DNA from: Dictyostelium discoideum
Lineage: Eukaryota
DNA: 64,000 nt
Direction of reading: 5' to 3'
Assembly: GCA_000004695.1 (NCBI GenBank)
Contig: CM000151.3
Location: 1,824,001 to 1,888,000, forward strand
Shown: one piece after another, positions 20,194 through 64,000 of the stretch
How positions within the stretch are numbered: position 1 is the first letter of the stretch
How the letters are laid out: each line of letters starts with the position of its first letter
The notes under the pieces: model-generated
The model's database searches: none
What the model was told of the DNA's origin: nothing
The model's input: the letters and a program-made list of their open reading frames with translations, nothing else
Made by a program: the position numbers and the translations under genes

Positions 20194-20773
20194 TAGTTAT
20201 TTTTAAATGCATAAATAATTAAAATGAATATTATTATTTTTTTTTTTTCTATTCTTTTTATATGATAAAATTATTTATTTTTTTTTTTTTTTTTTACAAA
20301 AAATTAAAATATAATAAAAAATCAGTTGAAATACATTCATCAAATAAATAATTTATAAATAAAACTAGCATTAATAAATTATTTCTACCAATTCTGACAC
20401 CCAGAAAATAATCTTTTTTTTTTTTTTCTTCAATTAAACTTGTTCATTAAAAATTTTTAAAAAATAAATGGGGGTTATTGTAAAAGTGGTATTAAAAAAA
20501 AAATTATTTTTTTTTTTTTTAAAAAAACAATCTCTTAATATTATTTTCTTGTCACCCAAGAGTGTTGATTTAAATTTATGGAAAACATGATTACAAAAAA
20601 GAATTTATATTATTCTAAAAAATATCAAGATTAACAGATAAAAAAAAAAAAAAAAAAAAAAACTGACCAAACTAAAAATATGAAATTAAAATAAATAATA
20701 TTAAAATTTGAATATTTAAATAGAAAATAATAATGATTTATTTAAATTATTCTTAAAAAATCAAGTGAAAAAA

Positions 20774-21823
20774 ATGGATATTAAAAATCTATCATTAAAA
20801 GATATAAAATTCCCTAAAAGTTGGGAAACAAAACCAAGTAAAATTGAATACATGCAATTTGTTTATCAAGAAGCAATTGATATGAAAGTTTGGAGAAAAG
20901 ATAATGAAATTGATATATTAACACACCACCATGTTACTGATTTATCAAGATTCTTTTGGCCAAATGCTGACTTTGAAGGATTGGTATTAGGTGCAGAATT
21001 AATGGTTTGGTTCTTTGCATTCGATGATTTATTCGATGGTGGTTTTATTGATGATAATGAAAATGAACAATATAGACTAGTGAATAGAATGAATAAAGTA
21101 TTCTTGGAAGGCACCATTGAGGATGACTCAACTGGTGCAGAGAGAATGGGGTATTATTTAAGAAATAAAGTTAGAGCAATATGTGGAGAGAAAAGACAAT
21201 CAACATTCCACCGTTTCAATAGCTCCTGCGTTCAATGGGTAGATTCAATAATACCATTTATTAAATTAAAAAGAAATCAAAAATCATTAGATTTCAATCT
21301 ATACATTCATCATAGAAAATTCAATATTGGTGCAATACCTTGTTTTTTGGTATCTGAAATCATTCTTGACCCAATGTCAAATATTGAATGTTTTATTTGG
21401 TTAGATTCAAGATGGATTAAAATGTCTGAAATCATTTGTGAAATAATTGCACTTGTAAATGATTGTGTATCCTATGAGAAGGAAATCAAAGAGAATGGTG
21501 CACCTTTAAATTCTCTAAAATTTATTCAAATTGAAAAGAATTTAAATTTACAAGAATCATTTGAATATATTTCAAATTATTTAAATGAACTAATTAACCA
21601 ATACATTGAACTTGAAACTAGTTTTATTAAATCCTATAAACCTATAACATCCAATTACAATTCAAACTTTATTGCAATAGTTGAACACTTACATAATATG
21701 TCATTTGCCAATGTTTCTTGGTCTACTCAAACTCCACGTTACCTTAGTCAAACACAACCATTTCTTGAATTAAGAAGAAATAAAAAAATTATTACAAAAA
21801 TTTATGATTTAAAAAATAAATAA
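20774..21823 (+). CDS. class I terpene synthase (Dictyostelium TPS family), 349 aa, unspliced
   Basis: The DDxxD motif is FFAFDDLFDGG. The NSE/DTE motif is LVNDCVSYEKEIKE (ND..S...E). The real ATG is at 20774; the track start at 20765 is GTG. The gene is divergent from the P450 gene, with a shared 5' intergenic region of ~580 bp. Confidence 0.85.
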   Translation: MDIKNLSLKDIKFPKSWETKPSKIEYMQFVYQEAIDMKVWRKDNEIDILTHHHVTDLSRFFWPNADFEGLVLGAELMVWFFAFDDLFDGGFIDDNENEQYRLVNRMNKVFLEGTIEDDSTGAERMGYYLRNKVRAICGEKRQSTFHRFNSSCVQWVDSIIPFIKLKRNQKSLDFNLYIHHRKFNIGAIPCFLVSEIILDPMSNIECFIWLDSRWIKMSEIICEIIALVNDCVSYEKEIKENGAPLNSLKFIQIEKNLNLQESFEYISNYLNELINQYIELETSFIKSYKPITSNYNSNFIAIVEHLHNMSFANVSWSTQTPRYLSQTQPFLELRRNKKIITKIYDLKNK

Positions 21824-22157
21824 AAAAAATAAAAAATTAAAAAAAAAATGAAAAAAATAAAAAATAAAAATATCTTTTTTTTTTTTTTCAAAATGAAAAT
21901 AAAAAAAAATAAAAATAAATAAAAATTTAGATTTTTTTTATAAAAAAAAAATTAATTAATTATTTTTTTTTTTTTTTTATTTTATTTTTTTCATTTCACT
22001 TTTCGTCTCATATTTTTTTTTTTATTATTTTTTTTTTTTTTACAATTACTATTTCAAATATTAAAAAAAAATAAATATAAATAATATTAATTTGTATTAC
22101 TAACTATCATTTCAATATTAATAATATACCAATAAAATAAAAAATAAAATAAAAACA

Positions 22158-24032
22158 ATGAGTATTAATAGTGATTATAATAAAGAGAATAATAATATAT
22201 CACCATTAAATACTAGTAGTGAAAGAAGAAGTAGTTTAAGGAATAGTTTAAATAATAGCAGTAATAATAATAATAATAATGTAATAAATACACCAACAGC
22301 TAATTCAATTAATAGTAGTGGTAATTTTTCACCAAAAGAATTTGTATCAAATATAGATGGTGAGGAGATAATTTATCAAAATCAAAGTGTAGAGTATAAA
22401 CAAAGATTATGTACCATTCAAATTAAACAATCTACATTAATCATTAAATTCAATGAAAAGGGTGGTTTCACTAAATATTTAGTATCAGATACGATAGTTG
22501 GATCAGAGATAACCAATGAATCCACCAATGAATATACAATCTACTCATGTGTAATGAATACATTGGATGTGACAAAGGAAACCAGAAGAAGAAAGCAATT
22601 CTCATTAAGATTTAGAGACAGATTCGAATTGAATCAATTCAATGACAAGTTTGTAGAGGCTTTCTTAGACACCCTTCCAATGGGCAATCCAAGGGAGAGA
22701 AGAATCAGGGTTATCCTAAATCCAAAATCTGGTAAGAAAATGTCGGATTCCATCTTTAAAGATATCAATGAGCTCTTTAAAGATTCGAAAATATTCGTAA
22801 AGAAAACCGTTACAAAAGGACCTGACCATGCGAAAAAGATTGGCTATAAATTCAACCTCAAGAAATACGATACCATAGTTTTCATATCTGGTGATGGTTT
22901 ATTCCACGAGTTTATCAATGGTCTTTTGAGTAGAACCGACTTTGAACAAGCTAGAAAGATACCATTGGCTTTGATCCCAGGTGGCACTGGTAATGGCATT
23001 GCTTGTTCCATCGGTTTACAAGATCCAATGTCTTGTGCATTAGCAGTTATACGTGGTTTCACTAAACCATTAGATGTTAGTGTAATTCAACAAGGTGATA
23101 AAAAATGGTGTTCAATCTTGTCTCTAACTTGGGGTATAGTATCCGATGTTGATATAGAATCTGAAAAGTATCGTGCCTTGGGTGATGTTCGTCTAATCTT
23201 GGGTGCAGCATTACGTATTCTAAACCTACGTATCTATCGTGGCAAAATTTGGTATTTACCAGCTTTAGAATTAAATAAAACAGAAATTGCTAAAATTCCA
23301 AAATGTTCTTATTCATGTGAAATTTGTGAAAGTGATAATCCAATTTCAACAATTGAAAATGTTATATCTCAACAACAACAAAATAATACAACAACAAATC
23401 AATTAAGACGTTCATCTTTAAATAATAGTAGTAATGGATTTTCACCAAAATTAAATACTAGTGGTAGTATTTCAAATGGAAATGATGATGAATTAAGATC
23501 AATGTTTTCAAAAGAAGAGAATATAAAGATTGAAAATGAAATACATGATCACCAAAATGATGATGTTTTACCATTACTTAAATCATCAAGTGATCAACAT
23601 TTCATTGTTCCACCAACTAAATTACCAAATCAACAATTCTTAAAAGAGACAAAAGAGGAGTTATTTGCAAAAGGTTGGAAAGTTTTAGAAGGTGAATTCA
23701 TTGGTATCGTCGCAAGTACAGTATCCCATTTAGCTTCAGATTTCATCGCATCTCCAACTGCACATCTTTCTGATGGTTTAATTGATTTAGTAGTAATTAA
23801 TAATAATAAGAAATTTAGTAAAGCAGGTTTATTATCAGTTTTAACAGAATCCTCAACTGGTGCTCATGTAAAGAGTGATCTCATTGATCAATATAAGGTT
23901 CAAGCTATGATCTTAGAACCAAGTAATGATAGAGAAGGTATTATTGCTGTAGATGGTGAATTAATCTCTTATGGTCGTACTTCAATGGAATGTATGAGAG
24001 CTTGTATTAATTTAATTTGTAGAACTTATTAA
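22158..24032 (+). CDS. sphingosine kinase-type lipid kinase (DAGK catalytic-domain family), 624 aa
   Basis: [13 protein letters not shown] is the ATP-binding N.SG.G-like motif. [15 protein letters not shown] and [13 protein letters not shown] are conserved in the SphK/CERK/DAGK catalytic domain. N/S-rich inserts are typical for Dictyostelium. Confidence 0.8.
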
Positions 24033-24140: not shown

Positions 24141-25067
24141 TTAAGGTTTTGTTAAAAATCTAGAACAATTTAAAGATTGATAATAATTTGATTTATAATT
24201 ATAAAATCTTTCAACTGAATTACATTCATATTGGAAACATTCAAATTGTTTAAAACATTTACAAGTTATTGGTGATAATGTATTACATTTTTCATTTATA
24301 AGACATTGTTCAAGTTTTTGTTCAAGGTTTACACATTTTTCATTATTTAATTCACCATTTGGACCTACACATACTGATTTGCTATTAACATCATCTAAAC
24401 AAACACAGAGACCACCATTACATGTTGATTCATCTTCACATTGTTTAAAATATTGATCATTTTTAATACATTTTTGAGTTTCTTGATTACATATTTCACC
24501 ATTGAAAACCCTGCATTGTAATGGAGAATCGGTACATTTTTCACCAACTTTTGAAGAATATTTTATTATACATTTATTGGATGATGTACAAATATGACTT
24601 GTTGGACATTGGGAATTAGCTTTACAAACTATGGAATTAATATCATTTGGAATTGGTTTACATTGTTTGGTTTTATCATCACAATATTGATTCAATGGGC
24701 AATTGTAACTATTACAAGCTGATATTAATTGACAAATTCCATTTTTACATTCACTCGATGATGAACACTTTTGTGAGGTTACTTTTGGATTACAACGATC
24801 ACCAGTTGCAATAATAATTTCACATTTACCATTAACACAATCTCCAAAGTCATAAGTTAATGTACAATCTGTTTTCTTTGTACAACTTTCACCAGTTGTA
24901 CGAATTTTTGAACAAACAGAATTAAAGCATACTTCTGGGAATAAACAATCTGCATTTATTTCACATGATGATCCTTTTAATCCATATGTTCTATTTGAAT
25001 TACATTCATATGATAAACATAAATTATAATTATTTATTATTAAAATTAAAATTAATAATAATTTCAT
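24141..25067 (-). CDS. secreted cysteine-rich repeat protein (308 aa), inverted paralog of 2463..3368
   Basis: The signal peptide is MKLLLILILIINNYNLCLS. The same C..C..(N)GKC modular pattern and a similar length are seen. Confidence 0.8.
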   Translation of the reverse strand: MKLLLILILIINNYNLCLSYECNSNRTYGLKGSSCEINADCLFPEVCFNSVCSKIRTTGESCTKKTDCTLTYDFGDCVNGKCEIIIATGDRCNPKVTSQKCSSSSECKNGICQLISACNSYNCPLNQYCDDKTKQCKPIPNDINSIVCKANSQCPTSHICTSSNKCIIKYSSKVGEKCTDSPLQCRVFNGEICNQETQKCIKNDQYFKQCEDESTCNGGLCVCLDDVNSKSVCVGPNGELNNEKCVNLEQKLEQCLINEKCNTLSPITCKCFKQFECFQYECNSVERFYNYKSNYYQSLNCSRFLTKP

Positions 25068-27350: not shown

Positions 27351-28612
27351 ATGATACTTGATAGTATTTTAAACAATAAAGGTAACAATAGGGAAAAAGC
27401 AAAAATAATTGAATCTACTCTTTTGTTAAACTATAATTATTTCCATATACTAGAAATTGTAAAAATATACGAAGGGAATGATGGAAGATATGATGGTATA
27501 AATGGAATGAAGGTAATTATTAATTATATCAAATGATCAATTAATTTTTACTATTTTACTATTTTACTATTTTACTATTTTACTAATTTACTAATTTACT
27601 AATTTACTAATTTAATATTTGAAAGTTAGTTTTCGAGTACAATAGATTCATTACAATGAAAATATTAAAAAATGATAGAAAAGATGAAATAGTAAGTGCA
27701 TGTCCATTTGTTAGAGTATTTTGGAAATGGCATCTAACAAATTCAAAAGCGTATGAACAATTTTGCAATATAATTGGATTCTTTATTCATCACACCCCAA
27801 TTACAGATAGTGTATATGAATTATATGCAAGAGAAATCGATGAAAGAAACATAAAAACTATTGAATTTTATAAGGAATGTTTTTCCGATATAAACTATTC
27901 TATTTGGAATTTCTATGATATGTTTGGTGATAATAGTTTAAAAAATCATAAAAAAAATAACAAACTTAAAACTAATAACAATAACAATAATAGTAATAGC
28001 AACTTAATTAATAAATCTCATAATCACCACAACCATCATCACCACAGAGAAAAACCAAAACAAAAAGAAAAAGAAAAAGAAAAAGAAAAAGAAAAAGAAA
28101 AAGAAAAAGAAAAAGAAAAAGAAAAAGAAAAAGAAAAAGAAAAAGAAAAAGAAAAAGAAAAAGAAAAAGAAAGAGAAAAAGAAAGAGAGAGAGAAAGAGA
28201 AAGAGAAAAAGAAAAAGAAAAAGAAAAAATTAAGCATAAAACTCATCAGGATAATCATAAAGATAATGATGGAATGCAAATAGGTAGTGTAAAAAGTGTT
28301 GAAAGTAATGTTAATGGTAGTGGTAGTGATATCAATGGTAGTTCCAAAAAAAGGAAAGCGGTTGAAGATGGACCAGAGTCAAATCAAAACAAACCTGGTA
28401 TTATTAAAAAAGCGATATTAAATAATAGTGCATTAGATGATATATTCAAAGAACAAAACGAGAAAAGAGAGAAACAAATGAAAGAAATAGAAAATAATAA
28501 TAAAATAAACAACAACAACACCAACAATAACTCTTTCATTAATTCCAAACCTAGCATCAATAACAACAACATCAAACCCAATATCAACAACTACAACTAC
28601 AACAACAACAAC

Positions 28613-28664
<52 letters not shown>

Positions 28665-30658
28665 GCAATAATAAATATGACGATGATGATGAATTGGATC
28701 TTAATATACAACCAAAGAATTTTCAAAAATTTAAGAAGCTAAGAAAATCTAAAGATAATGATGATGAAAATGAGCTGGAAAAACAAAAACAAGCAAAAGA
28801 AAAAGAAAAAGAAAAGGAAAAAGAAAAAGAAAAAGAAAAAGAAAAAGAAAAAGAAAAAGAAAAAGAAAAAGAAAAAGAAAAAGAAAAAGAAAAAGAAAGA
28901 GAAAAAGAAAAAGAAAAACAAAAAGAAAAAGAAAAAGAAATACAAAGAGAAAGAGAAAAAGAAAAAGAGAAGGAAAAAGAAAGAGAAAAAGAAAAAGAAA
29001 AGGAAAGAGAAAGAGAAAGAGAGAGAGAAAAAGAAAAAGAAAAAGAAATAGAAATAGAAAAAGAAAAAGAAAAAGAAAAAGAAAAAGAAAAAGAAAAAGA
29101 AAGAGAAATAGAAATAGAAATAGAAAGAGAAATAAAAAGAGAAATAGAAAGAGAGAAAGAAAAAGAAAGAGAAAAAGAAATAGAAATAGAAAAAGAAAAA
29201 GAAAAAGAAAAAGAAAAAGAAAAAGAAAAAGAAAAAGAAAGAGAAAGAGAAAGAGAAAGAGAAAGAGAAAGAGAAAGAGAAAGAGAAAGAGAAAGAGAAA
29301 GGGAAAGAGAAAAAGAAAAAGAAAGAGAAAGAGAAAAAGAAAAAGAAAAAGAAAGAGAAAGAGAAAAAGAGAAAAAGAGAGAATTGCAAAAGAAAAAACA
29401 AGAGGATAAAAGATTAGAAGAGAAAAAGACATTTGCTGAAGATTTTGAAAGAAAAAGATTAGAAAAAGTTGCTGAAATTAAAAGTAGAAATGATAAAATC
29501 GAAGAAGAATTTAGAAAAAATCAACAAAGAGAATTGGAAAAGAAAAAATTGGAAAATGAAACTACTTCCATTAAAAAACCAGAATTACATAGATTAGATG
29601 GTAAAAGAAAAGCTTTAAATTCATTATCATCATCATCTGAACAATCTTTGAATTTGTCTCCAACATCAATGTCTACAGCATTAACAACTACCACTACTAC
29701 TTCAACTGGTTTACCATCACCACCATCACCACCATCACCACCACCACCACCACCAAGCATCCCATCGTCAAATCAAATTAAAAAAGATGATAAAAATCAA
29801 AATATTACACCAAGCGATTTTGAGAAGGAATCGGTTGGACATCATAATAAAGTTTTATCATCAATTCAAAAACCACCATACTCACACATCCAACCTCCAC
29901 AACAACCACAACAACCACAACAACCACAACAACCACAACAACCACAACAACCACAACAACCACAACAACCACAACAACCACAACACCACAACAACAACCT
30001 CCAGTCCAACCACAACAACCACAGCAACCACAACAATCACAACAACCACAACCACAACCACAACAATCACAACAACATCAACAACCACAACAACTACAAC
30101 AACTACAACAACTACAACAACTACAACAACTACAACAATCACAGCAAAGGCCCCAGGTCCCACCACAACATCAACAATCACAACAACACCAAAATCAAAT
30201 TCAACTTCAACAATCCCAAATACAACCACAACAACAATCCCTAAATCGAAATCAACAATACCAAAACCAACCTAATTCGTCTTCTGCATTACAAAATGCA
30301 GCTGAACAATTAACAAGAGCGGGCAATGATGAGGTTTTAAAACAATTACAACTTCTTTCACAACAAAATCAGCAACATCGACAACCCCAACAACAACAAA
30401 CTATGGGTCAGCAAGCCCAACAACACCAAACCCACCAAACTATGGGTCAGCAAGCACAACAAAAACAACAACAACAACATCACCAACAACAACCTCAACA
30501 ACAACCTCAACAACAACCTCAACAACAACCCCAACAACAAAAACATCATCCCCAAATCGCTCATCAAACTGTACAATATCAAAATAATTACCAACAAACA
30601 CAGCCACATGCAGAAAGAGTTCACATGCATCAACAACCCCAACAACAACAACAACCCC

Positions 30659-40275: not shown

Positions 40276-40901
40276 ATGTTTTATGATAATATAAAATATT
40301 ACCAATATTCATTTAGGGAAGGATTTTGTAGTGGAAATGGAATAAATAAAATAAGTTGCATTTTTGGTAGTAGTATATTTGATGGTGTGGGTGGCATTGG
40401 TAGAAATGGAGATGATAATGGTGGTGGTGGTGGTAGAGTATTAAGAAGAAGAAGGGATAATAATGATATTAATAGAATTATTGGTGATGGTGGTGGTGGT
40501 GATGGTGATTTAATTTTAAATGAAGAGGATGAATTTATTGATGAAGTGGATATTATGTGTATTAACTTTTTTAATTTAAAAAATTTTAAAAAGTTAATAA
40601 AACATAATATTCATTTTATCATTAGATTTTTTGCTTTAATAATATTACAGTATTTATTTGTTAAATTTTTTGGTCCAGTTTGTTTTGTTTTTACTAGTTT
40701 TTTTTTAATATTTAATAATCTTGGAAAAAAAAAATCAAAGGTAAAAAAAAACAAAAAAAAAAAAAAAAAGTTTTGTTTAGAAAATCTAATTAAAAAAATT
40801 ATTATTAATAACAGGATGAAATTAGTGCATATAGTGTTTTTAATAAAAATCATTCAAATCTTGTCAAAGGGCCAAATTTGATTGCCATAAATTTTGTTTA
40901 A
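40276..40901 (+). CDS. SAYSvFN-domain protein, tandem paralog, 2 exons (40276..40740; 40815..40901), ~183 aa
   Basis: The real ATG is at 40276; the track start is TTG. The donor is AAG|GTAAAA. Exon 2 begins DEISAYSVFNKNHSNLVKG. It has the same architecture as the upstream paralog and a G/D-rich N-terminus. Confidence 0.75.
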
Positions 40902-51233: not shown

Positions 51234-51548
51234 TTAAAAGAAGTGACCATGGTGATGACCGTGGTGGTGACCGTGGTGGTGATGGTGACCAGTTTCATAG
51301 ACGACTGTGGTAGTTGGATAAACCATTGGTTGTGGGACCATAACTGGAGCGCCCATCATTGGTGGTGGGACCATAACTGGAGCACCCATCATTGGTGGTT
51401 GACCGTAGATTGGCATTGGTTGAACCATTGGTTGGACCATTGGTTGGACCATTGGGACGACTGGAGCACCATAAACGCCGGTGGTGTAGGTAATGGTATC
51501 ATGATGGTGATGACCGTGATGACCGTGATGATGATGATGATGACCCAT
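51234..51548 (-). CDS. small histidine-rich protein (104 aa): HGHH-repeat termini flanking a P/V/Q/M-rich core; family member 1 of 3 in the window
   Basis: MGHHHHHHGHHGHHHHDTITYTTG...VQPMVQPMVQPMPIYGQPPMMGAPVMVPPP...ETGHHHHHGHHHGHHHGHFF. It has an ATG start and a compact non-AT-rich ORF. Confidence 0.7.
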   Translation of the reverse strand: MGHHHHHHGHHGHHHHDTITYTTGVYGAPVVPMVQPMVQPMVQPMPIYGQPPMMGAPVMVPPPMMGAPVMVPQPMVYPTTTVVYETGHHHHHGHHHGHHHGHFF

Positions 51549-52170
51549 TTTGTATATATTTATATGTGTAAAATTTTATTTGTTTAAATAATGTGAAAGA
51601 AAAAAAAAAAAATTGAAAAAAAAAAAAAAATTGTTTTTATATTTATTTTATTTTTTTTTTATTTTTTCTATTTTTTTTTGAGAAATTAAAAAAAAAAAAA
51701 ATAAAAAAAAATAAAAAAAAAAAAATATTTTTAACGCCCTTAGCGATCTCTTGTTTTTTCTGGTGACTTGTAAAATTAAACAAAAAATAAAACTTATCTT
51801 TATTTTTCATTATTTTTTATTTTTTTTCCCATATTTTTTAAAAATAATTCGAAAAAAATAATTATTACATATTATAATAATATGTAGTAAAAAGAAAAAA
51901 AAAAAAAAAAAAAATTGATGTTTTTTAAAAAGTGGTAAAATTTTGTGTGGTTTGAATTATTACCACTTTTAAAATAAAAATAAACTTAAATTTAGTTTTT
52001 ATTTTTCAAATAATAAAATAAAATGAAATAAAATAAAATGAAAAAAACAATAAAATAAATAATAAAATTATAAAGGTAATTTTAGATGCAATATAAAATT
52101 TATTTTATTTTAATACATTTTATTACATTATATTTTAATTTATTATTTGTTTTATTTTATTATTTTTTTT

Positions 52171-52422
52171 TTAATTACTTTCAATATTATGATATCCTCC
52201 ATTGCCATTAATTTTTTTGATGGATTTACTAAATTCAATATTTAATGTTAGATTTGAAAATTCATAAAAGAATGTCACCATATATGCAAATATAGATAAT
52301 GCCGACATAATTTCAAAAATTGCTGCCAAGTTATCGATAAAAAATTGTGTAATAATATCTTAAATAAAAAATAAAATTAAATATTAATATATTTATATAA
52401 AAAAAAGAAAAGAGAAAACAGG

Positions 52423-52466
<44 letters not shown>

Positions 52467-53131
52467 AATATAAAAATTAAAACTTACAACCAATAAATAA
52501 ACAAGATATACAAATTAATATTTTTCTAATTATTAAAACTTTCAAAGGAATATCACTTGAATTTTTAATATCTAGTATAGTTTGAGTTAATAAATAAATA
52601 AAACCACATAAAAAAAACAATGCTGCAAAGATAACATGAACAAGGTTTGCGTTATGAAATTGAAAAGATGATACACCATGCATTGATAAACCACTAATGA
52701 ATCCCATTGATGTTGAAAATCTATTGAATCTTAATTCTTTTTTCTCTTTTTTATCATCAAAATATTCCTTTTCAATTATATTATTCTTTATAATTAAATG
52801 TTTAATAAATACCACAATAATCATTAAAAATGCTATAATTGATAATCCAAATGTTCCAATACAACTTTCTTTTTTTTTTTTTAAAAAAAATAAAAAAAAA
52901 AACAATTAGAATTTTTGTTTAATGATAACTCAATGATTAAATTATATTTCATTTATATATATACATACCTGGGGCAAAATCGATTGTATCACTTATATAT
53001 GGAATAATTTGATCATCATCTCCACGTACTTCAGTTATAGCATATGTGGTGATGAATGTAATCGGAACAATTAAAGATATTATACATAATATATAAAAAG
53101 GTTTTATTTGTGTAGTTTTTGATGAAATCAT
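52171..53131 (-). CDS. DRAM/Frag1/TMEM150-family multi-pass membrane protein, 3 exons (53131..52969; 52868..52488; 52358..52171), ~243 aa
   Basis: The family-diagnostic N-terminal motif IIPYISDTIDFAPG (PYISDTG-like) follows TM1. Donors are GTATGT and GTAAGT, acceptors (A)nAG and TTTAAG, and both introns are phase 1. Hydrophobic segments run throughout. Confidence 0.75.
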
Positions 53132-53261
53132 GAAAAAAAAAAAATAATTAATTAAGCATTTGAAAAAAAAAAAAAAAAATTAACTAAAAAAAAAAAAAAT
53201 TGAAACAGAGTTCCACCTTTTCAACAAATTTTGAAAAAAAAAAAAAAAAATTAAAATCCAA

Positions 53262-53410
53262 TTCCACCGAGTATTATTTAATTATTTAATTATTTAATTA
53301 ATTATTCTGGTAATTCAAATAAAAATTAAAATACAATTACACCGAGTATTATTTAATTATTTAATTATTTAATTGTTTATTCTGGTAATTCAAATAAAAA
53401 TACAATTGAT
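53262..53410. repeat. tandem duplication of a ~72-bp unit (ccaccgagtattatttaattatttaattatttaatt...ctggtaattcaaataaaaat...acaatt)
   Basis: Two adjacent near-identical copies are seen directly. Confidence 0.7.
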
Positions 53411-54091
53411 GATGACAAACCAATAATGAAATCAAAAATGAATCCAAAAAGAATAATATAAATTTTATTTTATTTATAATTTTATTCTCAAACAATTTTA
53501 ATTATTTAGATTAATCTATTATTTTAGATCTAAAATAAAAATAACATTCCCACCAAAAACAATGATTGAGTATGTATAAAAATGATTATTTTGAGTGGAT
53601 TTGTGTTTAAAATATAATATAATAAATTTTGTACTTGTTTTTAATAATCATTTTTAAAAAATATATTTTTTTTTTTCTTTTATTATATTATTATTTATTT
53701 TTTTAATATTTTTTTTATTTTTTAATTTTTTATATAATAATAAATATTTTTGTTTTTTTTATTAAGTGTGTGATTGGGAATTTAAATTATAATTTAAATT
53801 ATATATAAATTAAAAATATAAACACTTCTCATAAACTACTTTTTATGGCAATGGGTGAAAAAAAAAAATAATATTCATTTAATTAAAAAAAAACACACCC
53901 TAAAAAAGTTTAATATGAATAAATAGTATTTCAATATGATGAAAGAAACATCGAGTGGTGAGTGTGGTAAACTTAACACAGTGTTTAATAAACATGATGA
54001 GAAATATTGAAAATCATACAACAAAACTGATAAATTACTAGGATGTGTGAGTGTGTTGAAAAACATTTTCAATAAATAATGTGATTATTTT

Positions 54092-54127
54092 TTAATTCAA
54101 TATTGAAGCATTACCTTATTATTATTA

Positions 54128-54158
<31 letters not shown>

Positions 54159-54290
54159 CAATATTGAAGCATTACCTTATTATTATTATTTTTTTTTTTT
54201 TTATTTATAATTTTTTTTTATTTATTCCTAATCATAACACTATAAATATTTATATTTTTTTTATTATTGAAGCTTTACATTATTATTTTA
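54092..54290. repeat. direct repeats of ~45 bp (ttaattcaatattgaagcattaccttattattattatttttt): two good copies plus a degenerate third
   Basis: Seen directly at ~54092, ~54153 and ~54262. Confidence 0.6.
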
Positions 54291-54398
54291 AATATATTTT
54301 TTTTTAATTGATTTTTATTTTAAATCATAAACATTAATAATAAATTAATAAACACATTCTCAAAAAAAAAAAATTTTAATATTAAAAAAAAATCAAAA

Positions 54399-56673
54399 AT
54401 GAAAATTATTATATTATTTTTTATATTATATTTAGTTTCTGTTACGCTCGGAGTTTTAATTGAACCAGTTTTCAAGGGCAAATATTTAATATTTAAAAAT
54501 AATTTTAAAAATTCTTTTGATGGCAATCTAATTCACCATTATTATCAGATACACATGCCAACACTTGACCATGTAAATTTTTAGCAATATCAATTGTCAT
54601 GACAGCAGCGCATGTTCTTGTTGTGCTATTATTTTTACATTCAAAAACCAAGTCATAGATAAAATCTTGAAAATTTCATTTTTGAAAATATGTACTATCA
54701 ATATCATATGTATATTCCAATGATTGTTTTGTAATTTTAAAATCTGAAATTAAAATAAAATTATTAGAAAAAATTAGTGTTGGAGATATCGATATCTTTT
54801 AAAAAAACACAATGTATCGACAAATGATTTATCCTATTTAGTTTTTTATCGACTCAATTTTTAAAAACAAATAAAATGAGGTAGTTATTAATTTTAAATT
54901 ATTTTGTTAAAAAAATGCAACTCTTTTTTTTTTTTTTAGGTAATCCTTTAGGTGACTCAATAGATGCTACAAATTTATTACTCGATTATAAAGGTGGTTG
55001 TGGTACGAGAATAATTCAGTGGCCAAACGGTTATAAATATAGCTTTAATCATTCTAATCCAGTAATTGATAATATCTCTATTGAAAGCTCATCTTTTATA
55101 TCACTTGGTCATAATTTTTGTAATAGTCCCGAGTCAATTCAAGTTTATTTAGATGGTGTTCAAATTGATAAATCAAAAATAAAATAAAATCAATTGATCA
55201 TGAACAATTTGAAATTATTTACAGTCAAGAACATTCAAAATCCATCATTGTGAAAATTGTCTCTGGTGGACTTGAATCAAACAAATTCAAATTAGACTAC
55301 AAACCAATGCCATTAAAAATTAATAGTGTTCCAAGATTAAAAGGTGGTTCAATTACAATAATTGGTGAAAGATTATCATCACAAGTAAATAATTCAACAA
55401 TCATTGTTAAAATTGGTCAATATGATTGTAAAAATGTAATCTCATCAAAAAATGAAATTCTATGTAATTTAGAATCGGTTTCAAATGTTGAAAAAGTCAA
55501 ATTGGTAGATTTACCAGTTAATATCTCAATAAATGGCATTTTTAATGAAAATAATTTATTATTCTCATTCGATACTCCAATAATATCAGATTTTATACTT
55601 CCTCAAGGTGAAGTTAAATTAGTTGGCCATTGTTTTGGTTATTCACAAATAACTCAAATTAATATTGACAATGTATTACAATCCAACATAACAATTAATA
55701 TAAATGAAAAAGAAACAACACTTTTATTTAAGCCAATTCTTCCAATTAAAAAATCAAAGTTATATATAATTGTCAATGGTACAAAATCAAATACTATTGA
55801 AATTGATTCATCATTTTTTGTAAAAAGTGTTCCATCATCACCTTCAGTAAATGGCCAAACTGTAAACTTTACACTTTTCAATATAAACACAAATAATTTT
55901 AATGCAACACCAATTATGACTTTTCAAGATAATAGTTCAATTAAATCAACTGATTATAAAAATTCAAATGAATATTCCACTCATATATACTCTTTTGAAA
56001 TTCCAAAAAGTTGTGGTAGAAATGAAATTACAATAAACAAGTTTACAATTGTTCATTTATAAAATATAAATCTATCTCTTGTGATATTAAATTAGAAGGT
56101 CCGTTTGATCAACTTTGTAAAATCAAATTTAATGGTAAAGATGAGGAGAACAACATTTCAATATCATATTATCCTCCATTAGTATTAAATTCAACAACGA
56201 TTTCAAATTCATCGATTGGTGGAATTATTACAATTTTTGGTAATGAATTTTATAATGAAATTGATTTAATTACAGTTGGTAAAAGCAAATGTTTAAACTC
56301 TACATTTATAAATTCAACATCAATTTCATGTTTTGTGGAACCTTCAAATTTTATTATTAATCAAGCCAAACAACAACAACAACAACAATATGTTAACATT
56401 ACAATTAATGGTAAAAGTGGTGGCAATAATTTAAATATTTATTTTGATAATTCATTTATTGAAGTTAAAAATTAATCAAGCGAAAATGATAAAAACAACA
56501 ACAACAACAACAATGGTAGAAATAAAATTAATGATGATAGTAAAACTGATGGTAGAAGTTTGTATGAAAAATATAAAAAATATTTTATAGCACCTATAAT
56601 AATCGTTAGTTTGTCATTAATTATAGTTGCCTTTAAACTTATACTTTACTTTAATAGAAAAAATGGGCTGTAG
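54399..56673 (+). pseudogene. IPT/TIG-domain cell-surface protein pseudogene (Tgr/Tiger-like architecture: signal peptide, several IPT/TIG repeats, TM, short tail), disrupted by at least 2 frameshifts and an in-frame stop before the TM segment
   Basis: The signal-peptide ORF is 54399.. (MKIIILFFILYLVSVTLG). IPT-like modules read GGSITIIGERLSS...CKNVISSKNEILCNL and [44 protein letters not shown]. The coding segments 54915..55187, ~55196..56062 and ~56040..56475 lie in three different frames with no GT..AG introns between them. A TAA at ~56473 is followed in the same frame by ...YFIAPIIIVSLSLIIVAFKLILYFNRKNGL* (TM plus tail). Confidence 0.5.
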
Positions 56674-56747
56674 TCTATTGGAAATATATTATAAAAGAGA
56701 AAATAAAAAAATTTAAAAATAGAAAAGAGCAAAAATGTATAGATGGT

Positions 56748-57083
56748 ATGAGAGAAATATTAAATAATGCAGAGAAAAATTTTCCTGACATAAAATTAGA
56801 TAATGTAATAACTTATAAAAAGTATAAAATGCCACAAGAAAAAAGTGTAGAAGGAGAACTAAAAGAACAAGCACCTCCTCTAAGTGAATATGACCAATTT
56901 CCAAGTTATTATTTACATTCACCAAAAGATTCACAACCTTCAAATCAAATTGAAACTTTACCAAAAGATTCACCTCCTCCAAATCAAAATGAAAAATTAA
57001 CAGAAGATTCATTACCACCTTCAAATCAAATTGAAACGTTACCAGAAGATTCATCACCACCTCCAAATCAAACTGAAAAATAA
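56748..57083 (+). CDS. hypothetical small protein (111 aa) with tandem P/S/Q-rich ~12-aa repeats (SQPSNQIETLPKDS / SLPPSNQIETLPEDS)
   Basis: Track ORF. The repeats are seen directly. It could instead be an additional degraded tail fragment of the upstream pseudogene. Confidence 0.3.
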   Translation: MREILNNAEKNFPDIKLDNVITYKKYKMPQEKSVEGELKEQAPPLSEYDQFPSYYLHSPKDSQPSNQIETLPKDSPPPNQNEKLTEDSLPPSNQIETLPEDSSPPPNQTEK

Positions 57084-57293
57084 CAGACAATTCATCATCT
57101 CGAGATGGACCATCAAGCTCTTCATAATTTCTTTTTTTTCTTTACTGGACCACTTTCTGTATTTTTAATAATTACAGATTGGAACCCACCAAAGCTATTA
57201 CTATTATTATTATTGTTGTTGTTGTTGTTATTATTTGTAGTATTCATACCACTTGCAAGATCTGCTAATGGGTCAAATACCATTGGTTTATTA

Positions 57294-57531
57294 TTAATCG
57301 ATTAAAGTTGGTTGTTGTTGTTGGGATGATTGGAAATTTGGTGTTGCTGGTGAAGGTCCACTTCCACTTGCTGCTCTTGGTCTACTTCTTTCGCCAGATG
57401 CTGCATTTGGATTATTTTGGATATGTATTATATAATCCAAAAGCCATAAAAAAAAAATAAAACTCACCTGCTCTATTACTATAATTTTCATATTCTGCTC
57501 TAGTATTACTATATGGATCCGAATCATATGA

Positions 57532-57581
<50 letters not shown>

Positions 57582-57884
57582 AACCTTCATCTCTACCATT
57601 GAAAGAGTCTCTTCTGGTTGTTTCTCTTTGGTTACCACCATATGAATATCTTTGGTTACCACCATATGAATCTCTTTGATTACCACCATATGAATCTCTT
57701 TGATTACTACCATATGAATCTGAATCATAACCACCACCATATGAGCCACCTCCATAACCAAAGTCACTGTTATCATTACCAATACCAACATATTTATTTT
57801 GGTTAGTCTTTGCTTTATCTCTTTCCTCTTTAATTCTTTGATCATCTTGTAATAAATCAATAACTTGTTTTGCTCTTTCACGAA
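57294..57884 (-). other. orphan 3' gene fragment: two exons (57884..57468, 57400..57294) encoding an ENTH-domain-like terminal helix followed by SYGGNQRD repeats, poly-N and a C-terminal tail; no possible start codon upstream
   Basis: The correct frame (not the track frame) reads ..VRERAKQVIDLLQDDQRIKEERDKAKTNQNKYVGIGNDNSDFGYGGGSYGGGYDSDSYGSNQRDSYGGNQRDSYGGNQRYSYGGNQRETTRRDSFNGRDEGYGN(12)SYDSDPYSNTRAEYENYSNRAG | AASGERSRPRAASGSGPSPATPNFQSSQQQQPTLID*. The donor is GCAG|GTGAGT and the acceptor TGCAG. The upstream acceptor is TTTTAAAAG at ~57886. The 165 bp between this exon and the stop of the next minus-strand gene contains no ATG on the minus strand. Confidence 0.5.
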
Positions 57885-58059
57885 CTTTTAAAATAAATTG
57901 TTTATTTAAAAAAATATTTTGTTATTATGTGAATTCAATTTTTAAAAAATAATGAAAAAAAAAAAAAAAGGATGTAAATATTGATGATAATACTAAACTT
58001 TAAACAAAGGATCTTTTAATAAAAAAAAAGACACAAACCACTTTTTTTGTTTTTTTAAT

Positions 58060-59429
58060 TTATTTTGAATTAATTAAAAGATTATAAACTACAAATGATT
58101 TGGTTTGATCTTTTTTAAAATTAGGAATACTTTCAATTGCTTTTACGATTTGAGCTTCAGATATTTTAAAACCCATTTGATTAATAAAGAATTCGACAAT
58201 ATAAAATTGATCCCAACTAATAGCATGTTCCAATAATAAAGATAATTCTTTTTGAGTGTAAATTGAATTATTATTTGAAAGTTTCTTTGTTAAAACTCTA
58301 CGATATTGTTGATCATAAAATAAATGTTGAATTATTCTTAACCAACCATTTTTAATTACACCCTTTAAAAATTCGAATAGAGTTTCTTTGGCACTTTCAA
58401 TACTCACTTCAAAATCGGTACCATCAAATATTGGAAAATAAAATTCATTTAATAGTTTACATAATAAATTGATATCACCACTTTTTTTTACCCAATCTAA
58501 TAATTCCAAAATAACTTGATAATAGGGAGATGGATAACGTGGAATTCGATAATTATTTTCAAAAATCCATTTATTATTAATTTTATCATTTGAGAATATT
58601 GATTTTATACTATTATTATTATTATTATCTAATTTATTTGATATGAATAAACCAATATAATAACCTTTTGAAATTGTAAATCTACCAGATATTAAATCTT
58701 CATATCTAAAATTAAACATCCAATCAAGTAATTTAATTTTATTTGAATTCATATAATTATCATTTAAATGATCATTAAATTCCATTCTATTATTAGTTTT
58801 ACTAAGGATGGTTATTATATCATCAATATCTAATCTTGGATTTCTATTGATTTCTAAATAATGTGTAATTGCATCTTCTGTATATTTATAAATTCCAATT
58901 GGTTTATTAATTATATATGCTGCTGTTTTAATTAAATTTGATCTTTCAAAATTACTGTTATTTTCTTCAAGAATATTTTTTGAAAATGGTAATAATAAAT
59001 CTATATTACTATTGCTATTATTATTATTATTATTATTATTATCACTACTATTACTATTATTATTATTAGTAATTCCTAATAATTGTTCAAATCTTTCTAA
59101 TAAATCAATTCTACCTAGTGAATACCATGATACCATATCTTGAACTCTTTTAAAGAAACTATTTAAATGGTGAAAACAATAATCTAACATTTTAATTGAT
59201 TTAATATGTCTATGAAAATATGAAAATGATGAAAGGTATCCCTGATGTAATGCCATCATTGACTCTTTTTCAAGTACTTTTATTATATTAGAACAATTAT
59301 TATTAACAATACTATCCTCACCACCATATCCTTTAATTGCGATTTCAAGTAACTCTAAATCATCATATGATATTAATAAATGAAATATTGTGAATACTGA
59401 TAAATTTGACCATTCCTTATTCTTATTAT

Positions 59430-59525
<96 letters not shown>

Positions 59526-60034
59526 GATCATTTATTGCATTATTTATAAATTGAATTCTTTGTTTTTTACTATGACAATTTGAAAATAAAATATATGGAT
59601 ATTCTTCACCATGATTACTAACAGATTTGAAATTTTTAAAAATAGGTGGTAACACTTTTGAATCACCATAATGGTTAACTATAAATTTAAATAATTCGTA
59701 ATTTCCATACTCTAATGAAATAATTAAAAAGTATTCCCTTGGATATGGACTAGATGGAAGATGTGCTTTAAATATATCTTTATCAAAATCTAAATTAAAT
59801 ACTATTCTAATTTCAATTTGTTGAATAATTGTTCTACGAATTGGACTTTTTTCTTCACAAAAATCAATTAACTTTTTAATATTTGCTGTAGTTTGTTGAT
59901 AATTATTATTATTACTATCTTCATCATTTATTAACTTTGGTATTATTGATTTTATTTGAAGTTTAAGTTGAGAATTTGATAATTTTGATTTAATTTCATT
60001 AATTAATGGTACAATCAAATTTAAATCATCATTG

Positions 60035-60075
<41 letters not shown>

Positions 60076-60567
60076 TATATATGAAATTGAATAACAATAA
60101 TTTATTAAATCATTAATTGTAAATTTAGTTATATTAGTGGTACTTTTAATATTTATTTTAATTAAATCATCAAAAAGATTTTTTGTAACTACAGAAGATT
60201 GTAAAAAAAGGTAATTTAAAAATTTATATCTTTTTGGCGGATTTGAACGATGAGAATTTCCATTTGATTGGTTTATTAATAAATTTGTTAATAAACCTTT
60301 AATAATACAATTAGTTTTATCAGTATAAGTTTCCCAAAAATATTTAAACATTTTTAAATGTGAATGTATATTTATTAAATTTAAAATGTTTACCAACGAT
60401 TGTTCTTTTATTTTCCCATTTTTAGGTCCAAATTTACAATAGTTAAAATAATTATCTAATAAAACTTGAAATCCTTGAAAATTACCCACCTCTATTAATT
60501 CTTTTAAAACTTTTTTAAAACTAATAAAATATTTACCATAATTTCTAAATAACAATTCAAAGAATTC

Positions 60568-60666
<99 letters not shown>

Positions 60667-61245
60667 TGTTGGTGCATTTGTTTCTTTTTTATTTGATTTA
60701 TATTCTTTTTGAATATTAATAAATATATTTAAATACCATTCGGATTGTGGACAACGACCATCATAATAATAATTTCCAATTATTGGTTCATTTCTTTTGA
60801 TTTTATCTTTTAATAAATTTAAATAACCATTATTTAAAATCCAATCAATGTAAATTAAATCATCATATGAGTGATATTTACAATTTAAATTACCAAATAT
60901 GGTTTTAAATAAGATTTTATTTTTAAAAACTCTCCAAAATAATTGTTCATGTTTTTCAATATCTTTGATTGGTAATTGATAAATGCTACTATTAAATTTA
61001 TTAATTAATTTCTCTTTTGTTAATTCTTGTTTAATATTTCTTGAATCGTTCACAAATTTCTTTATTCTTTCAATTATTTCACTTTTTCTACCATTTGCTT
61101 TTAATTTTAATGTTTTTGCAACTTTTATTAATTCTCTACTTGATTTTGATTCTAATGATTCCATATCAATATCTTCTTTATTAGTGTCTAAATTATTTAT
61201 ACTATCATTCTCTTTTTTAAATTCATCTGTCTCATTATTTATCAT
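58060..61245 (-). CDS. lineage-specific SAP-domain protein (1061 aa) with poly-N tracts; paralog of 45111..49250
   Basis: The N-terminal SAP motif is SRELIKVAKTLKLKANGRKSEIIERIKKFV. The shared family motif is EQLFWRVFKNKILFKTIF. The ORF is unspliced with an ATG at 61245. Confidence 0.8.
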
Positions 61246-61679
61246 TTCAATTCAAAGTTTATTTGGGGTGGAATTGAAAAAAAAAAAAATGATCAAAAAA
61301 AAAAAAAAAAAGTAAAATAAAAAAAAAAAAAAATAATGAAAATAAAAAAAATTTAAGAATTAATTTAAAAAAAAAAAAATATTAAAGATCTAAAATAACC
61401 ACGATATTAAAAACACCCGACGATAACCCATACTGCCATCTCTTCATTTACTGTACCAAAATCAGACACATTATAATATTCCGATTCTCTCTGAAAACAT
61501 TTGTAACAATACCCGCAATCCTCATTTACCATCCACAACACATTAAAACAAAAGTGGAGCTCTCTACACATTAACACTTCCTTCTCCCTCATTAACTACA
61601 AACTAAAACATTACACTCTAAAACAAAAATTAAATAACAAACAATAAGCAAAGGAATATTACCTTACATTAGAAATTTA

Positions 61680-62350
61680 TTTATTTTTTATTAATTAAAA
61701 GATTATAAACTACAAATGGTTTAGCTTCATCTTTTTCAGAATTTATAATTGCCTTTGCGATTTGAGGTTCAGTTATTTTAAACCCATTTGATCAACAAAG
61801 AATTCGGCAATATAAAATTGATCCCAACTAATAGCATGTCTCAATAATAAAGATAATTCTGTTTGAGTGTAAATTGAATTATTACTTGAAAGTTTCTTTG
61901 TTAAAACTCTACGATATTGTTGATCATAAAATAAATGTTGAATTATTCTTAACCAACCATTTTTAATTACACCCTTTAAAAATTCGAATAGAGTTTCTTT
62001 GGCACTTTCAATACTCACTTCAAAATCGGTACCATCAAATATTGGAAAATAAAATTCATTTAATAGTTTACATAATAAATTGATATCACCACTTTTAAAA
62101 GCCAATCGATGTCATTTATATCATCATATGAGTGATATTTACAATTTAAATAATTAAATATGGTTTTAAATAAAATTTTATTTTTAAAAACTCTCCAAAT
62201 TCTTTCAATTATTTCACTTTTTCTACCATTTGCTTTTAATTATAAAGTTTTTGCTACTTTTGTTAATTATTAACCAGATTTTGATTCTAATGATTCCATA
62301 TCAATATCTTCTTCATTATTATTATAATCTGTCTCATTATTTATCATTTA
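61680..62350 (-). pseudogene. mosaic relic copy of the adjacent SAP-domain gene: 3' ~450 bp plus two short internal pieces plus 5' ~200 bp (including start-codon region and upstream flank), collapsed by internal deletions
   Basis: Track ORF 61773..62105 (MAFKSGDINLLCKLLNEFYFPIFDGTDFEVSIESAKETLFEFLKGVIKNGWLRIIQHLFYDQQYRRVLTKKLSSNNSIYTQTELSLLLRHAISWDQFYIAEFF...) is >90% identical to the C-terminus of 58060..61245. The DNA then continues with matches to ~60830..60960 and ~61060..61265 of the parent locus. Confidence 0.7.
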
Positions 62351-62872
62351 AGTTCAAAGTTTATTTGGTTTGTGGAATTAAAAAAAAAAAAAAAAAAAAA
62401 AAATTTTATGTTTTGGTGGAAATAAAAAAAAAATAATTAAAGCCCCAAGAAACTCAAAAGCGCCAAAAGTTAACTTGGTGTATTAATGAAAAAAAACCAT
62501 GATATTTAATAAGGGGAGTCGAATAGAAAATAAAAAAATATAAGTAAAAAAAATAAAAAAAAAGAGGCGACAAACCAACCAGCGTCGCATAAAATTACTT
62601 TTCACCACTTTAATGCTGAAATTTTTACATTCAACCTTAATATTTAAACAAACAAAAATTGAAAAACAGAGCGGTTATTTTGATTTGAATAAGAAAATTA
62701 TGACCAAAAATAAATAGATAAATATTTTATTAAACATAAAAAAAAAAAGTAAAAAAAAAAAGTAAAAAAAAATAAAAATAAAGATAATAATAAATAGAAA
62801 AAATAAATTACAAGATTGTTTTTTTTTTTTTTTTTTTTTATTTGTTGAGTAACTTTTAAAACTTCAAACTAT

Positions 62873-63127
62873 TTAAAAGAAATGACCATGATGTCCGTGG
62901 TGTCCATGGTGACCATGATGACCATGATGGTGGCTAGTTTCGATGACAACATTGGTTGGTGGATAAACTACTGGAGCACCCATAACGACTTGTGGTTGAA
63001 CCATCATTGGTGGTTGACCATAAACTGGCATTGGTTGAACCATTGGTTGGACAATTGGGGTAGTTGTGTAAGTAACGTGTTCGTGGTGACCGTGATGACC
63101 GTGATGATGATGACCGTGTGGAGGCAT
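62873..63127 (-). CDS. small histidine-rich protein (84 aa), family member 2
   Basis: MPPHGHHHHGHHGHHEHVTYTTTPIVQPMVQPMPVYGQPPMM...ETSHHHGHHGHHGHHGHHGHFF. It has the same architecture as 51234..51548. Confidence 0.7.
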   Translation of the reverse strand: MPPHGHHHHGHHGHHEHVTYTTTPIVQPMVQPMPVYGQPPMMVQPQVVMGAPVVYPPTNVVIETSHHHGHHGHHGHHGHHGHFF

Positions 63128-63721
63128 TTTGTTTTATATTATATTTATTTAATGTTTGAAAAAATTTAATGAATGAATGAAAAAAAAAAAAATAAGTTTT
63201 TATATTGTTTTTTTTATTTTATTATTTTTTTTTTTTAATAATTTTTTTTTTTTTTTCAAAAAATCAAGTGACGTCAAAAAAAGATTTTTTTAATATTTCG
63301 AAAGAAAATTAAAAATTTGGGAGTTTAAAAAAAAACAAAAATTCGAAAATAAAAAGATATTTTTTTTTGTTTTTTATTTCACAATTATTTTTTCTCAAAA
63401 TTAAATTATCAAAATGTTATAACTTTAATTTTTGACCTGATTAAAATTAATTTTATTATATTTTATTTTATTTTTAGAATTTTTTAAAAAAAAAAAAAAA
63501 AAAAAAGTTTAATTTTTACCAATTTTCTCAATTTCTCTTTTTTTGTTTAGGAATATAGGGTTTTAGATTTCATTTAATATAACAATAAATATAAAAATTA
63601 AAAAATAAAATAATAGGTTTTTTTTATTATTATTTTTTTATTTTAGGTAATAATTAATTATAATACAAAGTTTTTTTTTTTTATTTTTGTTTTTGTTGAA
63701 AACTTTTGTTATTTGAATAAT

Positions 63722-63991
63722 TTAGTGGTGACCATGATGACCGTGGTGGTGATGATCATGATGACCATGATGGCCATGGTGATGATGATGTCCATGGTGG
63801 TGACCAGTTTCTAAGACAATTGTAGCTTGTGGATAAACTACTGGTGGTTGAACATAAACTGGTTGGACAACTGGTGGTGGTGCATAAATTGGTTGAACAA
63901 CTTGTGGTGGTGCATAAACTGGAGTGATTGTAATATGTTCATGGTGACCATGGTGACCATGGTGATGATGATGATGACCGTGTGGAGGCAT
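63722..63991 (-). CDS. small histidine-rich protein (89 aa), family member 3
   Basis: MPPHGHHHHHHGHHGHHEHITITPVYAPPQVVQPIYAPPPVVQPVYVQPPVVYPQATIVLETGHHHGHHHHHGHHGHHDHHHHGHHGHH, with an ATG at 63991. Confidence 0.7.
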   Translation of the reverse strand: MPPHGHHHHHHGHHGHHEHITITPVYAPPQVVQPIYAPPPVVQPVYVQPPVVYPQATIVLETGHHHGHHHHHGHHGHHDHHHHGHHGHH

Positions 63992-64000
63992 TATGTTGTT

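Follow-up and report, generated by a model that had tools for sequence, protein, structure and literature searches.

Small proteins with a high content of histidine are known from several systems. In bacteria, Hpn and Hpn-2 of Helicobacter pylori as well as HypB, UreE, SlyD and CooJ with their histidine-rich tails are nickel stores or chaperones, and in Dictyostelium discoideum the small hisactophilins I and II (hisactophilin contains about 26% His) switch their charge. Here we report on three genes, g1, g2 and g3, which are located on the minus strand of a stretch of 64,000 nucleotides from D. discoideum (assembly GCA_000004695.1, contig CM000151.3, positions 1,824,001 to 1,888,000 of the forward strand; in the following the window). 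Each codes for a small protein in which a proline-rich core is flanked on both sides by a histidine-rich tail. In an earlier note, prepared from the nucleotide sequence, the three open reading frames (ORFs) had been described as dispersed members of one family with a suggested role in metal binding.

When compared with the described systems, the products of g1–g3 show resemblance in design but miss every membership feature that was tested, namely fold, acylation, Cys, signal peptide, Met motifs and Pfam domains. Like Hpn and the other bacterial proteins they are small, histidine-rich, of low complexity and presumably cytosolic, and could act as multivalent chelators. However, for Hpn metal binding is a proven property, for g1–g3 a predicted one; Hpn has Cys pairs and no Pro-rich core, and neither HMMER nor Pfam gave a sequence relationship. 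Hisactophilin is a folded, N-myristoylated beta-trefoil protein, whereas the g1–g3 proteins are predicted to be disordered and have no acylation motif; a sequence search of the PDB (E ≤ 10) matched solely recombinant His-tags and no hisactophilin chain. According to the PROSITE rule PS00008 myristoylation requires Gly at position 2, a small or uncharged residue at position 3 and Ser, Thr, Ala, Gly, Cys or Asn at position 6. In g1 (MGHHHHH) both position 3 and position 6 are occupied by His; the start of g2 and g3 is MPPHGH. The histidine-rich glycoprotein of vertebrate plasma has tandem G/H-rich pentamer-like repeats beside Pro-rich stretches and binds Zn2+ in a pH-dependent manner, but this glycoprotein is large and secreted, carries cystatin domains and follows the order Pro-His-Pro, whereas the order is His-Pro-His in g1–g3, which have no Pfam domain, no signal peptide and HGHH repeats without Pro instead of GHHPH. 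SilE and PcoE, for which the sponge concept exists, are likewise small disordered proteins with His (and, as in g1 and g2, Met). Both are periplasmic with signal peptides and conserved HxxM/MxxH motifs, in contrast to g1–g3, which have no signal peptide and no conserved Met. In the mussel preCols and the squid-beak His-rich proteins, histidine-rich ends surround a structural or hydrophobic core and assembly or coacervation is triggered by metal or pH; these animal proteins are secreted, greatly exceed g1–g3 in size, are rich in Gly/Ala and have no sequence relationship to them. Metallothioneins fill the niche which we propose below, that of a small high-capacity cytosolic metal buffer, but they are Cys-thiolate proteins and none of the seven Dictyostelium sequences of the g1–g3 family contains a Cys.

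A clustered gene family under purifying selection

g1, g2 and g3 are genuine paralogous protein-coding genes of one design. Together they are best described as a clustered, lineage-restricted and uncharacterised orphan family with the architecture His tail, Pro-rich core, His tail. Each gene consists of a single exon with an A-rich start context (Table 1), and position, strand, length and sequence of the ORFs and their translations are as given in the earlier note. On the other hand, the copies are not dispersed, as had been stated there, but form a local cluster on one strand in which g3 and g2 are separated by 594 bp and g1 lies 11.3 kb away. The GC content of the ORFs (40–45%) is clearly higher than that of the flanks (∼10%). 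When the C-terminal junction of the proteins was written as a degenerate DNA pattern (T/N-V/I-V-x-E/K-T-x-H-H-H/D-x-H), the sole matches in the window were the sites of g1, g2 and g3, and 100 shuffles gave none. The other G/H runs found in a six-frame scan of the window are two poly-His tracts within unrelated ORFs, one of 13 His at 29715..29753 (+) within the large ORF 27656..30244 and one of 8 His at 40484..40507 (−); neither is related to the family. Between 49 and 64 kb no RNA gene was found with Rfam or a tRNA scan.

Another D. discoideum assembly (GCA_054883475.1), 99.6% identical to the window, has an identical 104-aa gene annotated at the position of g1. NCBI gene calls cover this copy and the g1 orthologue of Dictyostelium citrinum, the latter being the one of four family copies in D. 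citrinum that is called as a gene. At least one copy of the family is already annotated, as hypothetical. A literature search found no paper on the family; the name "Histidine-rich protein DDB_G0274557" was encountered there solely in papers on crustaceans, where it serves as a BLAST label.

The earlier note had made its proposal dependent on conservation in other Dictyostelium species. Such conservation is evident from D. citrinum, which has syntenic orthologues of all three genes under strong purifying selection. In a synteny comparison the order of genes at the D. citrinum locus (L001) agrees with that of the window, and the locus contains four His-rich ORFs on one strand, three of them in tandem upstream of a large gene and one downstream of a Frag1-family gene. 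Three of the ORFs are 1:1 orthologues of g1–g3, and the fourth, Dc_a, is located upstream of the g3 orthologue and has no partner inside the window. Because of this position in the synteny a D. discoideum counterpart is expected beyond base 64000; it probably sits just past the window end. For the orthologue pairs of both species the synonymous rate dS, estimated by the method of Nei and Gojobori, is 0.45–0.60 and the ratio of nonsynonymous to synonymous rates (dN/dS) is 0.03–0.08. The neighbouring gene of 1061 aa has a dN/dS of 0.65 and is 57% identical to its D. citrinum orthologue.

It might be argued that g1–g3 are non-functional simple-sequence ORFs or that the true genes are found on the opposite strand, which has open Met/Val-rich ORFs. 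Indeed, plus-strand ORFs of 95–114 codons overlap g1 and g2, and the sequence of g1–g3 is built of short in-frame repeats. However, the plus-strand ORF over g1 starts with GTG and not with ATG, and the orthologues are 91–96% identical as compared to 57% for the neighbouring gene. In addition, the differences between the species at codon positions 1/2/3 amount to 4/1/24 in g1, 1/1/23 in g2 and 5/3/19 in g3, so that 66 of the 81 differences are at third positions of the sense frame, whereas the overlapping antisense frame has a ratio of 0.75–4.7 as opposed to the 0.03–0.08 of the sense frame. As both the antisense ratio and the third-position differences demand, the minus-strand frame is the selected one. 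Selection on g1–g3 targets the amino-acid sequence and is strongly purifying. Barring an error in the D. citrinum assembly, this codon-position test refutes the view that g1–g3 are not genes, to which we assign practically no probability.

The differences in length between the species are in-frame repeat units of 9, 12, 30 and 33 nt. The length of the tails drifts between orthologues while their His content is maintained, and the replacements are chiefly from Met to Val or Ile. The codon usage of g1–g3 differs from that of 15 large ORFs of the window: the GC content at third codon positions is 0.30 (0.41 for g1 alone) as compared to 0.14, the codons GTC, ACC and CAC are enriched, CCA reaches 95% and ATA does not occur. 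Sharp and Devine are said to have reported in 1989 that a bias for C-ending codons goes with high expression in Dictyostelium, and judged by their codons g1–g3 are probably well expressed.

Table 1. Genes, D. citrinum orthologues and candidate signals of the g1–g3 family (positions refer to the window unless L001, the D. citrinum locus, is given; distances in nucleotides)
Feature	Position	Strand	Identity	dN/dS	Remarks
g1	51234..51548	−			coding sequence (CDS) of 104 aa; ORF and translation
g2	62873..63127	−			CDS of 84 aa; ORF and translation
g3	63722..63991	−			CDS of 89 aa, 36% His; ORF and translation
Dc_d	L001 15013..15315		95%	0.073	orthologue of g1
Dc_c	L001 9119..9370		96%	0.031	orthologue of g2
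Dc_b	L001 8287..8529		91%	0.080	orthologue of g3
Dc_a	L001 7277..7546	+			fourth D. citrinum copy, 89 aa, MGHHHHHHGHYEE...GHFF
ATATAAAAAC box, then T-runs	51633..51642	−			94 upstream of g1 ATG; candidate TATA box and oligo-dT core promoter
ATATAAAAAC box, then T-run	63196..63205	−			78 upstream of g2 ATG; candidate core promoter; kept in D. citrinum
Block GTCACCAGAAAAAACAAGAGATCGC	51743..51767	−			∼200 upstream of g1; candidate regulatory site; identical in D. citrinum
Perfect palindrome TGACGTCA	63269..63276	.			∼145 upstream of g2; CRE-like, bZIP-type candidate site
AATAAA	62837..62842	−			31 past g2 stop; candidate polyadenylation signal

Protein architecture and distant relatives

The protein of g1 consists of the N-terminal tail MGHHHHHHGHHGHHHH, a His-free core of Pro, Val, Gln and Met and the C-terminal tail GHHHHHGHHHGHHHGHFF; its core contains the in-frame repeats VQPM (12 nt, 3.5 copies) and PPMMGAPVMVP (33 nt, 2.3 copies). 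g2 is built in the same way from MPPHGHHHHGHHGHHEH, a P/V/Q/M core and SHHHGHHGHHGHHGHHGHFF, and g3 has a Met-free core of Pro, Val, Gln, Tyr and Ala with an in-frame repeat of 30 nt (2.9 copies). All His residues are found in the tails, which contain 12 of 16 and 12 of 18 residues as His in g1, 10 of 17 and 12 of 20 in g2 and 12 of 19 and 20 of 27 in g3. With 59–75% His, far above the 35% mentioned in the earlier note, the tails consist of HGHH and HHGHH runs with Gly spacers and include stretches of 4–6 consecutive His. The cores have no His at all and are composed of Pro, Val, Gln, Met, Tyr, Thr, Gly, Ala and Ile. The C-terminal GHFF that had been ascribed to all three proteins is present in g1 and g2; g3 ends with GHH, followed by TAAATTATTC, and lacks the FF.

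The two junctions between tails and core are the most conserved elements apart from His. After the N-terminal tail follows (E/D)x(I/V)T(Y/I)T, and the C-terminal tail is preceded by Y-P-x3-4-(V/I)V-x-E-T-(G/S/D)-HHH; a Glu or Asp is conserved at both junctions, which appear to be beta-prone. The proteins use an alphabet of 13–14 residue types without Lys, Arg, Cys or Trp. There are 2–3 acidic residues in the window proteins (2–4 across the orthologues) and 11, 5 and 0 internal Met in g1, g2 and g3, respectively. The calculated net charge is ∼0 at pH 7.4, +9 to +13 at pH 6.5 and +18 to +26 at pH 5.5. Over the first 20 residues the Kyte–Doolittle hydropathy averages roughly −1.8 to −2.0, and all windows of 19 residues stay at or below 1.3, that is, hydropathy indicates neither a signal peptide nor a membrane segment, and for this reason the products are expected to stay in the cytosol or the nucleus. 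AlphaFold2 predicted no helices or strands (mean predicted local distance difference test score 46.6, predicted template modelling score 0.14). This points to intrinsically disordered proteins, although the result carries moderate weight because the alignment was shallow with three sequences.

When 1.84 billion representative proteins were searched exhaustively with HMMER, two hits were obtained, P0008 and P0009. P0009 is a protein of 98 aa from a soil metagenome (JGI 3300030743; L003 64..360, + strand) which shares architecture and motifs with the family, with a His-rich N-terminal tail, VYTY, a P/Q-rich core with YGNPP, YTVVYKTGHH and a His-rich C-terminal tail with a terminal aromatic residue. 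Its full-length alignment score was reached 0–1 times out of 500 in shuffles that preserved the three segments (z = 3.0–5.8). The GC content of its contig, 33%, and an adjoining TNFAIP8-like gene suggest an AT-rich eukaryote as source. Judged by this sequence similarity P0009 is probably a distant relative of the family, and the sole plausible one of this search. P0009 begins with MGLCYSC, which conforms to an acylation motif (myristoylation/palmitoylation), whereas the Dictyostelium proteins have no such motif. P0008 was rejected as a case of convergent low complexity; its contig has a GC content of 71% and a DUF2306 gene as neighbour. In Pfam no match was obtained for g1, g2 and P0009, and g3 gave sub-threshold scores with DUF7157 (15.3 bits) and ORF29-like (13.2 bits; cut-off 27). 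Scanning metagenome contigs of JGI for a DNA pattern yielded 17 loci, all of them chance matches in unrelated frames. Exact, profile, core-only and contig look-ups in protein collections with the D. discoideum and the four D. citrinum proteins gave no match, but are uninformative about absence because the annotated identical g1 of GCA_054883475.1 is likewise missing from these collections. For low-complexity proteins of this kind, negative database searches should not count as absence.

Possible functions of the g1–g3 proteins

The amino acid composition might give a hint as to the function. Runs of the HGHH type serve as metal-binding loops in ZIP/ZnT transporters and occur in Hpn and in the tails of HypB and UreE, and D. 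discoideum delivers Zn and Cu to its phagosomes. Dictyostelium tolerates a large excess of Zn and Cu, and a classical metallothionein activity was not detected (10.1101/356949). By composition alone, divalent-metal binding by g1–g3 is plausible, and by analogy we put forward, with more reserve than confidence, that the proteins are a cytosolic His-based overflow sponge for metal ions. The His content of the tails, the Gly spacing, the Glu/Asp at the junctions and the maintenance of His in spite of the drift in length support a link to metals. Each protein would offer two flexible His/Gly tails with 10–20 imidazoles each, joined by a length-variable and uncharged spacer of Pro, Val and Gln (and Met in some). 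The tails could thus act as multivalent His-only chelators of Zn2+, Cu, Ni2+ or Co2+ and, with ∼1 ion per 3–4 His, a chain would take up several ions. Such a low-affinity, high-capacity sponge or "muffler" would soak up surges of metal in the cytosol. Since binding to His is in competition with protons, the tails would shed the metal upon acidification and turn strongly cationic.

Several observations weigh against the metal sponge. The link to metals comes from composition, and the promoters yielded no metal-type motif, nor any motif common to the paralogues. His-only sites typically bind Zn or Ni with micromolar affinity, i.e. far above the free Zn of the cytosol; with this affinity a steady-state buffer is unlikely and an overflow role alone fits. 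Met as a possible ligand of Cu(I) is swapped with Val or Ile and varies widely in number between the paralogues, and Cu(I)–Met binding was dropped as a general family feature because Met is not conserved. Simple chelation leaves the strong conservation of core and junctions unexplained. The predicted disorder comes from a three-sequence alignment, and a pH switch fits the chemistry of the tails equally well.

This pH switch is the main rival. It holds that g1–g3 are pH-switched polycations or condensate formers, i.e. disordered functional analogues of hisactophilin or of the coacervating His-rich proteins of the squid beak, and we consider it rather unlikely. With hardly any charge and a hydrophobic character at cytosolic pH, the chain would tend to self-associate or to coacervate; an acidification by at least half a unit would add +9 to +26 charges, upon which it could dissolve or bind to membranes, F-actin, RNA or polyphosphate. 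The computed charge, near zero at pH 7.4 but highly positive once the pH drops below 6.5, agrees with this scenario, as do the lack of Lys and Arg, the few acidic residues and the elastin-like, P/V-rich and predictedly disordered core. The MGLCYSC start of P0009 would, by the common motif rule, tether that protein to membranes. Intracellular pH is a known variable of cell fate in Dictyostelium, and hisactophilin is an established His-rich pH sensor of D. discoideum (PMC13405390). Moreover, rigA (DDB_G0274655), another gene of chromosome 2, on which the window lies as well, which has been likened to histidine-rich glycoprotein, is upregulated at alkaline pH and biases cells towards prestalk fate; it is RasD-induced and well expressed in growing cells, and the prestalk bias seen with RasD(G12T) is suppressed when rigA is knocked out (PMC6251973). 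This alkaline-pH response and the prestalk effect would suit a pH switch, provided that rigA is kin to g1–g3. Points against the switch are the absence of an acylation motif, with His after Gly2 in g1 and an MPP start in g2 and g3, and the outcome of the PDB search, in which no sequence resemblance to hisactophilin emerged. Clustered His also have a lowered pKa, and the switch would therefore need a marked acidification. Nevertheless, metal sponge and pH switch are chemically coupled and not mutually exclusive.

Two further functions appear less probable. By analogy, the His runs might bind inorganic polyphosphate, of which Dictyostelium has plenty, or nucleic acids, or target the proteins to nuclear speckle-like bodies. 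A review describes the binding of polyphosphate to His repeats and to histidine-rich glycoprotein as electrostatic and the polymer as a constituent of Dictyostelium (PMC11352482); the tails of g1–g3 do contain runs of 4–6 His. This proposal is an analogy, however, with no localisation signal in the proteins, and leaves the conserved core unexplained, so we regard a polyanion as partner as improbable. A role as spore-coat protein or secreted matrix component, which the earlier note had also considered, or as an antimicrobial, histatin-like peptide is very improbable. Although the His-rich ends around a structural core recall the mussel preCols and other metal-cross-linked extracellular materials, the N-termini MGHHHHHH or MPPHGHHHH are hydrophilic and provide no hydrophobic signal, a hydrophobic segment and a Pfam match are missing, and known spore-coat proteins of Dictyostelium have Cys, unlike g1–g3.

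Flanking DNA, neighbouring genes and significance

The earlier note had assumed motifs shared by the flanks of all three genes. Upstream, g1 and g2 have in common just the ATATAAAAAC box and the T-run (Table 1), which we take to be a core promoter from the known layout of Dictyostelium promoters; the window carries merely 9 bases of the upstream region of g3. The block around the box of g1 is conserved in D. citrinum, and the block GTCACCAGAAAAAACAAGAGATCGC lies in otherwise AT-rich, diverged intergenic DNA. The palindrome TGACGTCA occurs once in the window (expected 0.12) and also once in the D. citrinum locus, at the orthologous place L001 8977..8984. It is part of a conserved block from ATCTTTT to TTGACGTCACTTGATTTTTTGAAAAAAAAAA, in which the species differ at a single base (T or C), three positions ahead of TTGACGTCA. 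The conserved upstream blocks are specific to the individual orthologue pairs, and there is no GC-containing 7–9-mer common to the promoters of at least three paralogue groups, for which reason the paralogues may be regulated differently. Of the motif cttttaaatagttt at the 3′ end, g1 and g2 have a copy with seven bases (ATAGTTT) outside the CDS, whereas g3 differs; the 3′ flanks of g1 and g2 can be aligned over TAAATAGTTT alone. AATAAA follows the stop codon at +112 in g1 and at +37 in g3 as well, which is weak evidence because this hexamer is frequent in the AT-rich DNA of the window.

Between the 1061-aa gene and g2 a truncated and internally deleted tandem copy of that gene is found at 61676..62403 (−). 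Its segment 62403..62199 is similar to the 5′ end of the gene (61304..61064), 62199..62073 is similar to 60938..60811, and 62096..61676 is 93% identical to the 3′ end (58485..58055). D. citrinum has just ∼630 bp at this position. The other D. discoideum assembly models the large gene with 1212 aa, and we suspect that this model fuses the fragment with the main ORF. About 4.9 kb (53146..58055) are missing from the D. citrinum locus; this region holds a plus-strand multi-exon gene with Ig_TgrO1 and TIG domains (605 aa in GCA_054883475.1). Odd low-complexity ORFs are found at 56.7–57.9 kb. Farther away, a P450 gene (∼18421..20193, −), a terpene synthase gene (20765..21823, +) and a gene with a DAG-kinase domain (22158..24032, +) are adjacent; this region (18421..24032) may be the known terpene synthase–P450 cluster of Dictyostelium. 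The large ORF 12283..15384 (+) is a DIRS-type retroelement with reverse-transcriptase, RNase H and tyrosine-recombinase (Phage_integrase) domains. The domain calls for both regions were taken from the gene table of locus L022. The ORF 24141..25067 (−) is identical to DDB_G0272512 on chromosome 2 of D. discoideum AX4.

The g1–g3 proteins provide a clear example from nature of strong purifying selection acting on a 13-letter protein that is predicted to be disordered and has no Lys or Arg, which is of interest for research on low-complexity proteins and condensates. In practice, Ni-NTA purifications from lysates of Dictyostelium would be expected to contain them as well. Should their function turn out to be trivial, they remain an ordinary lineage-specific orphan family. 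On the other hand, Dictyostelium is a standard model for the killing of bacteria by phagocytes with Zn and Cu. As a metallothionein activity is undetected in this organism (10.1101/356949), the family with its double His tails is an obvious candidate for a cytosolic buffer. One may go further and suppose, doubtful as this is, that g1–g3 are the missing Cys-free, His-only metallothionein replacement of the amoeba and form condensates tunable by metal and pH. If so, they would shield the cytosol of the phagocyte from the Zn and Cu that it uses against its prey, and would couple the metal load to cytosolic-pH signals that bias cell fate.

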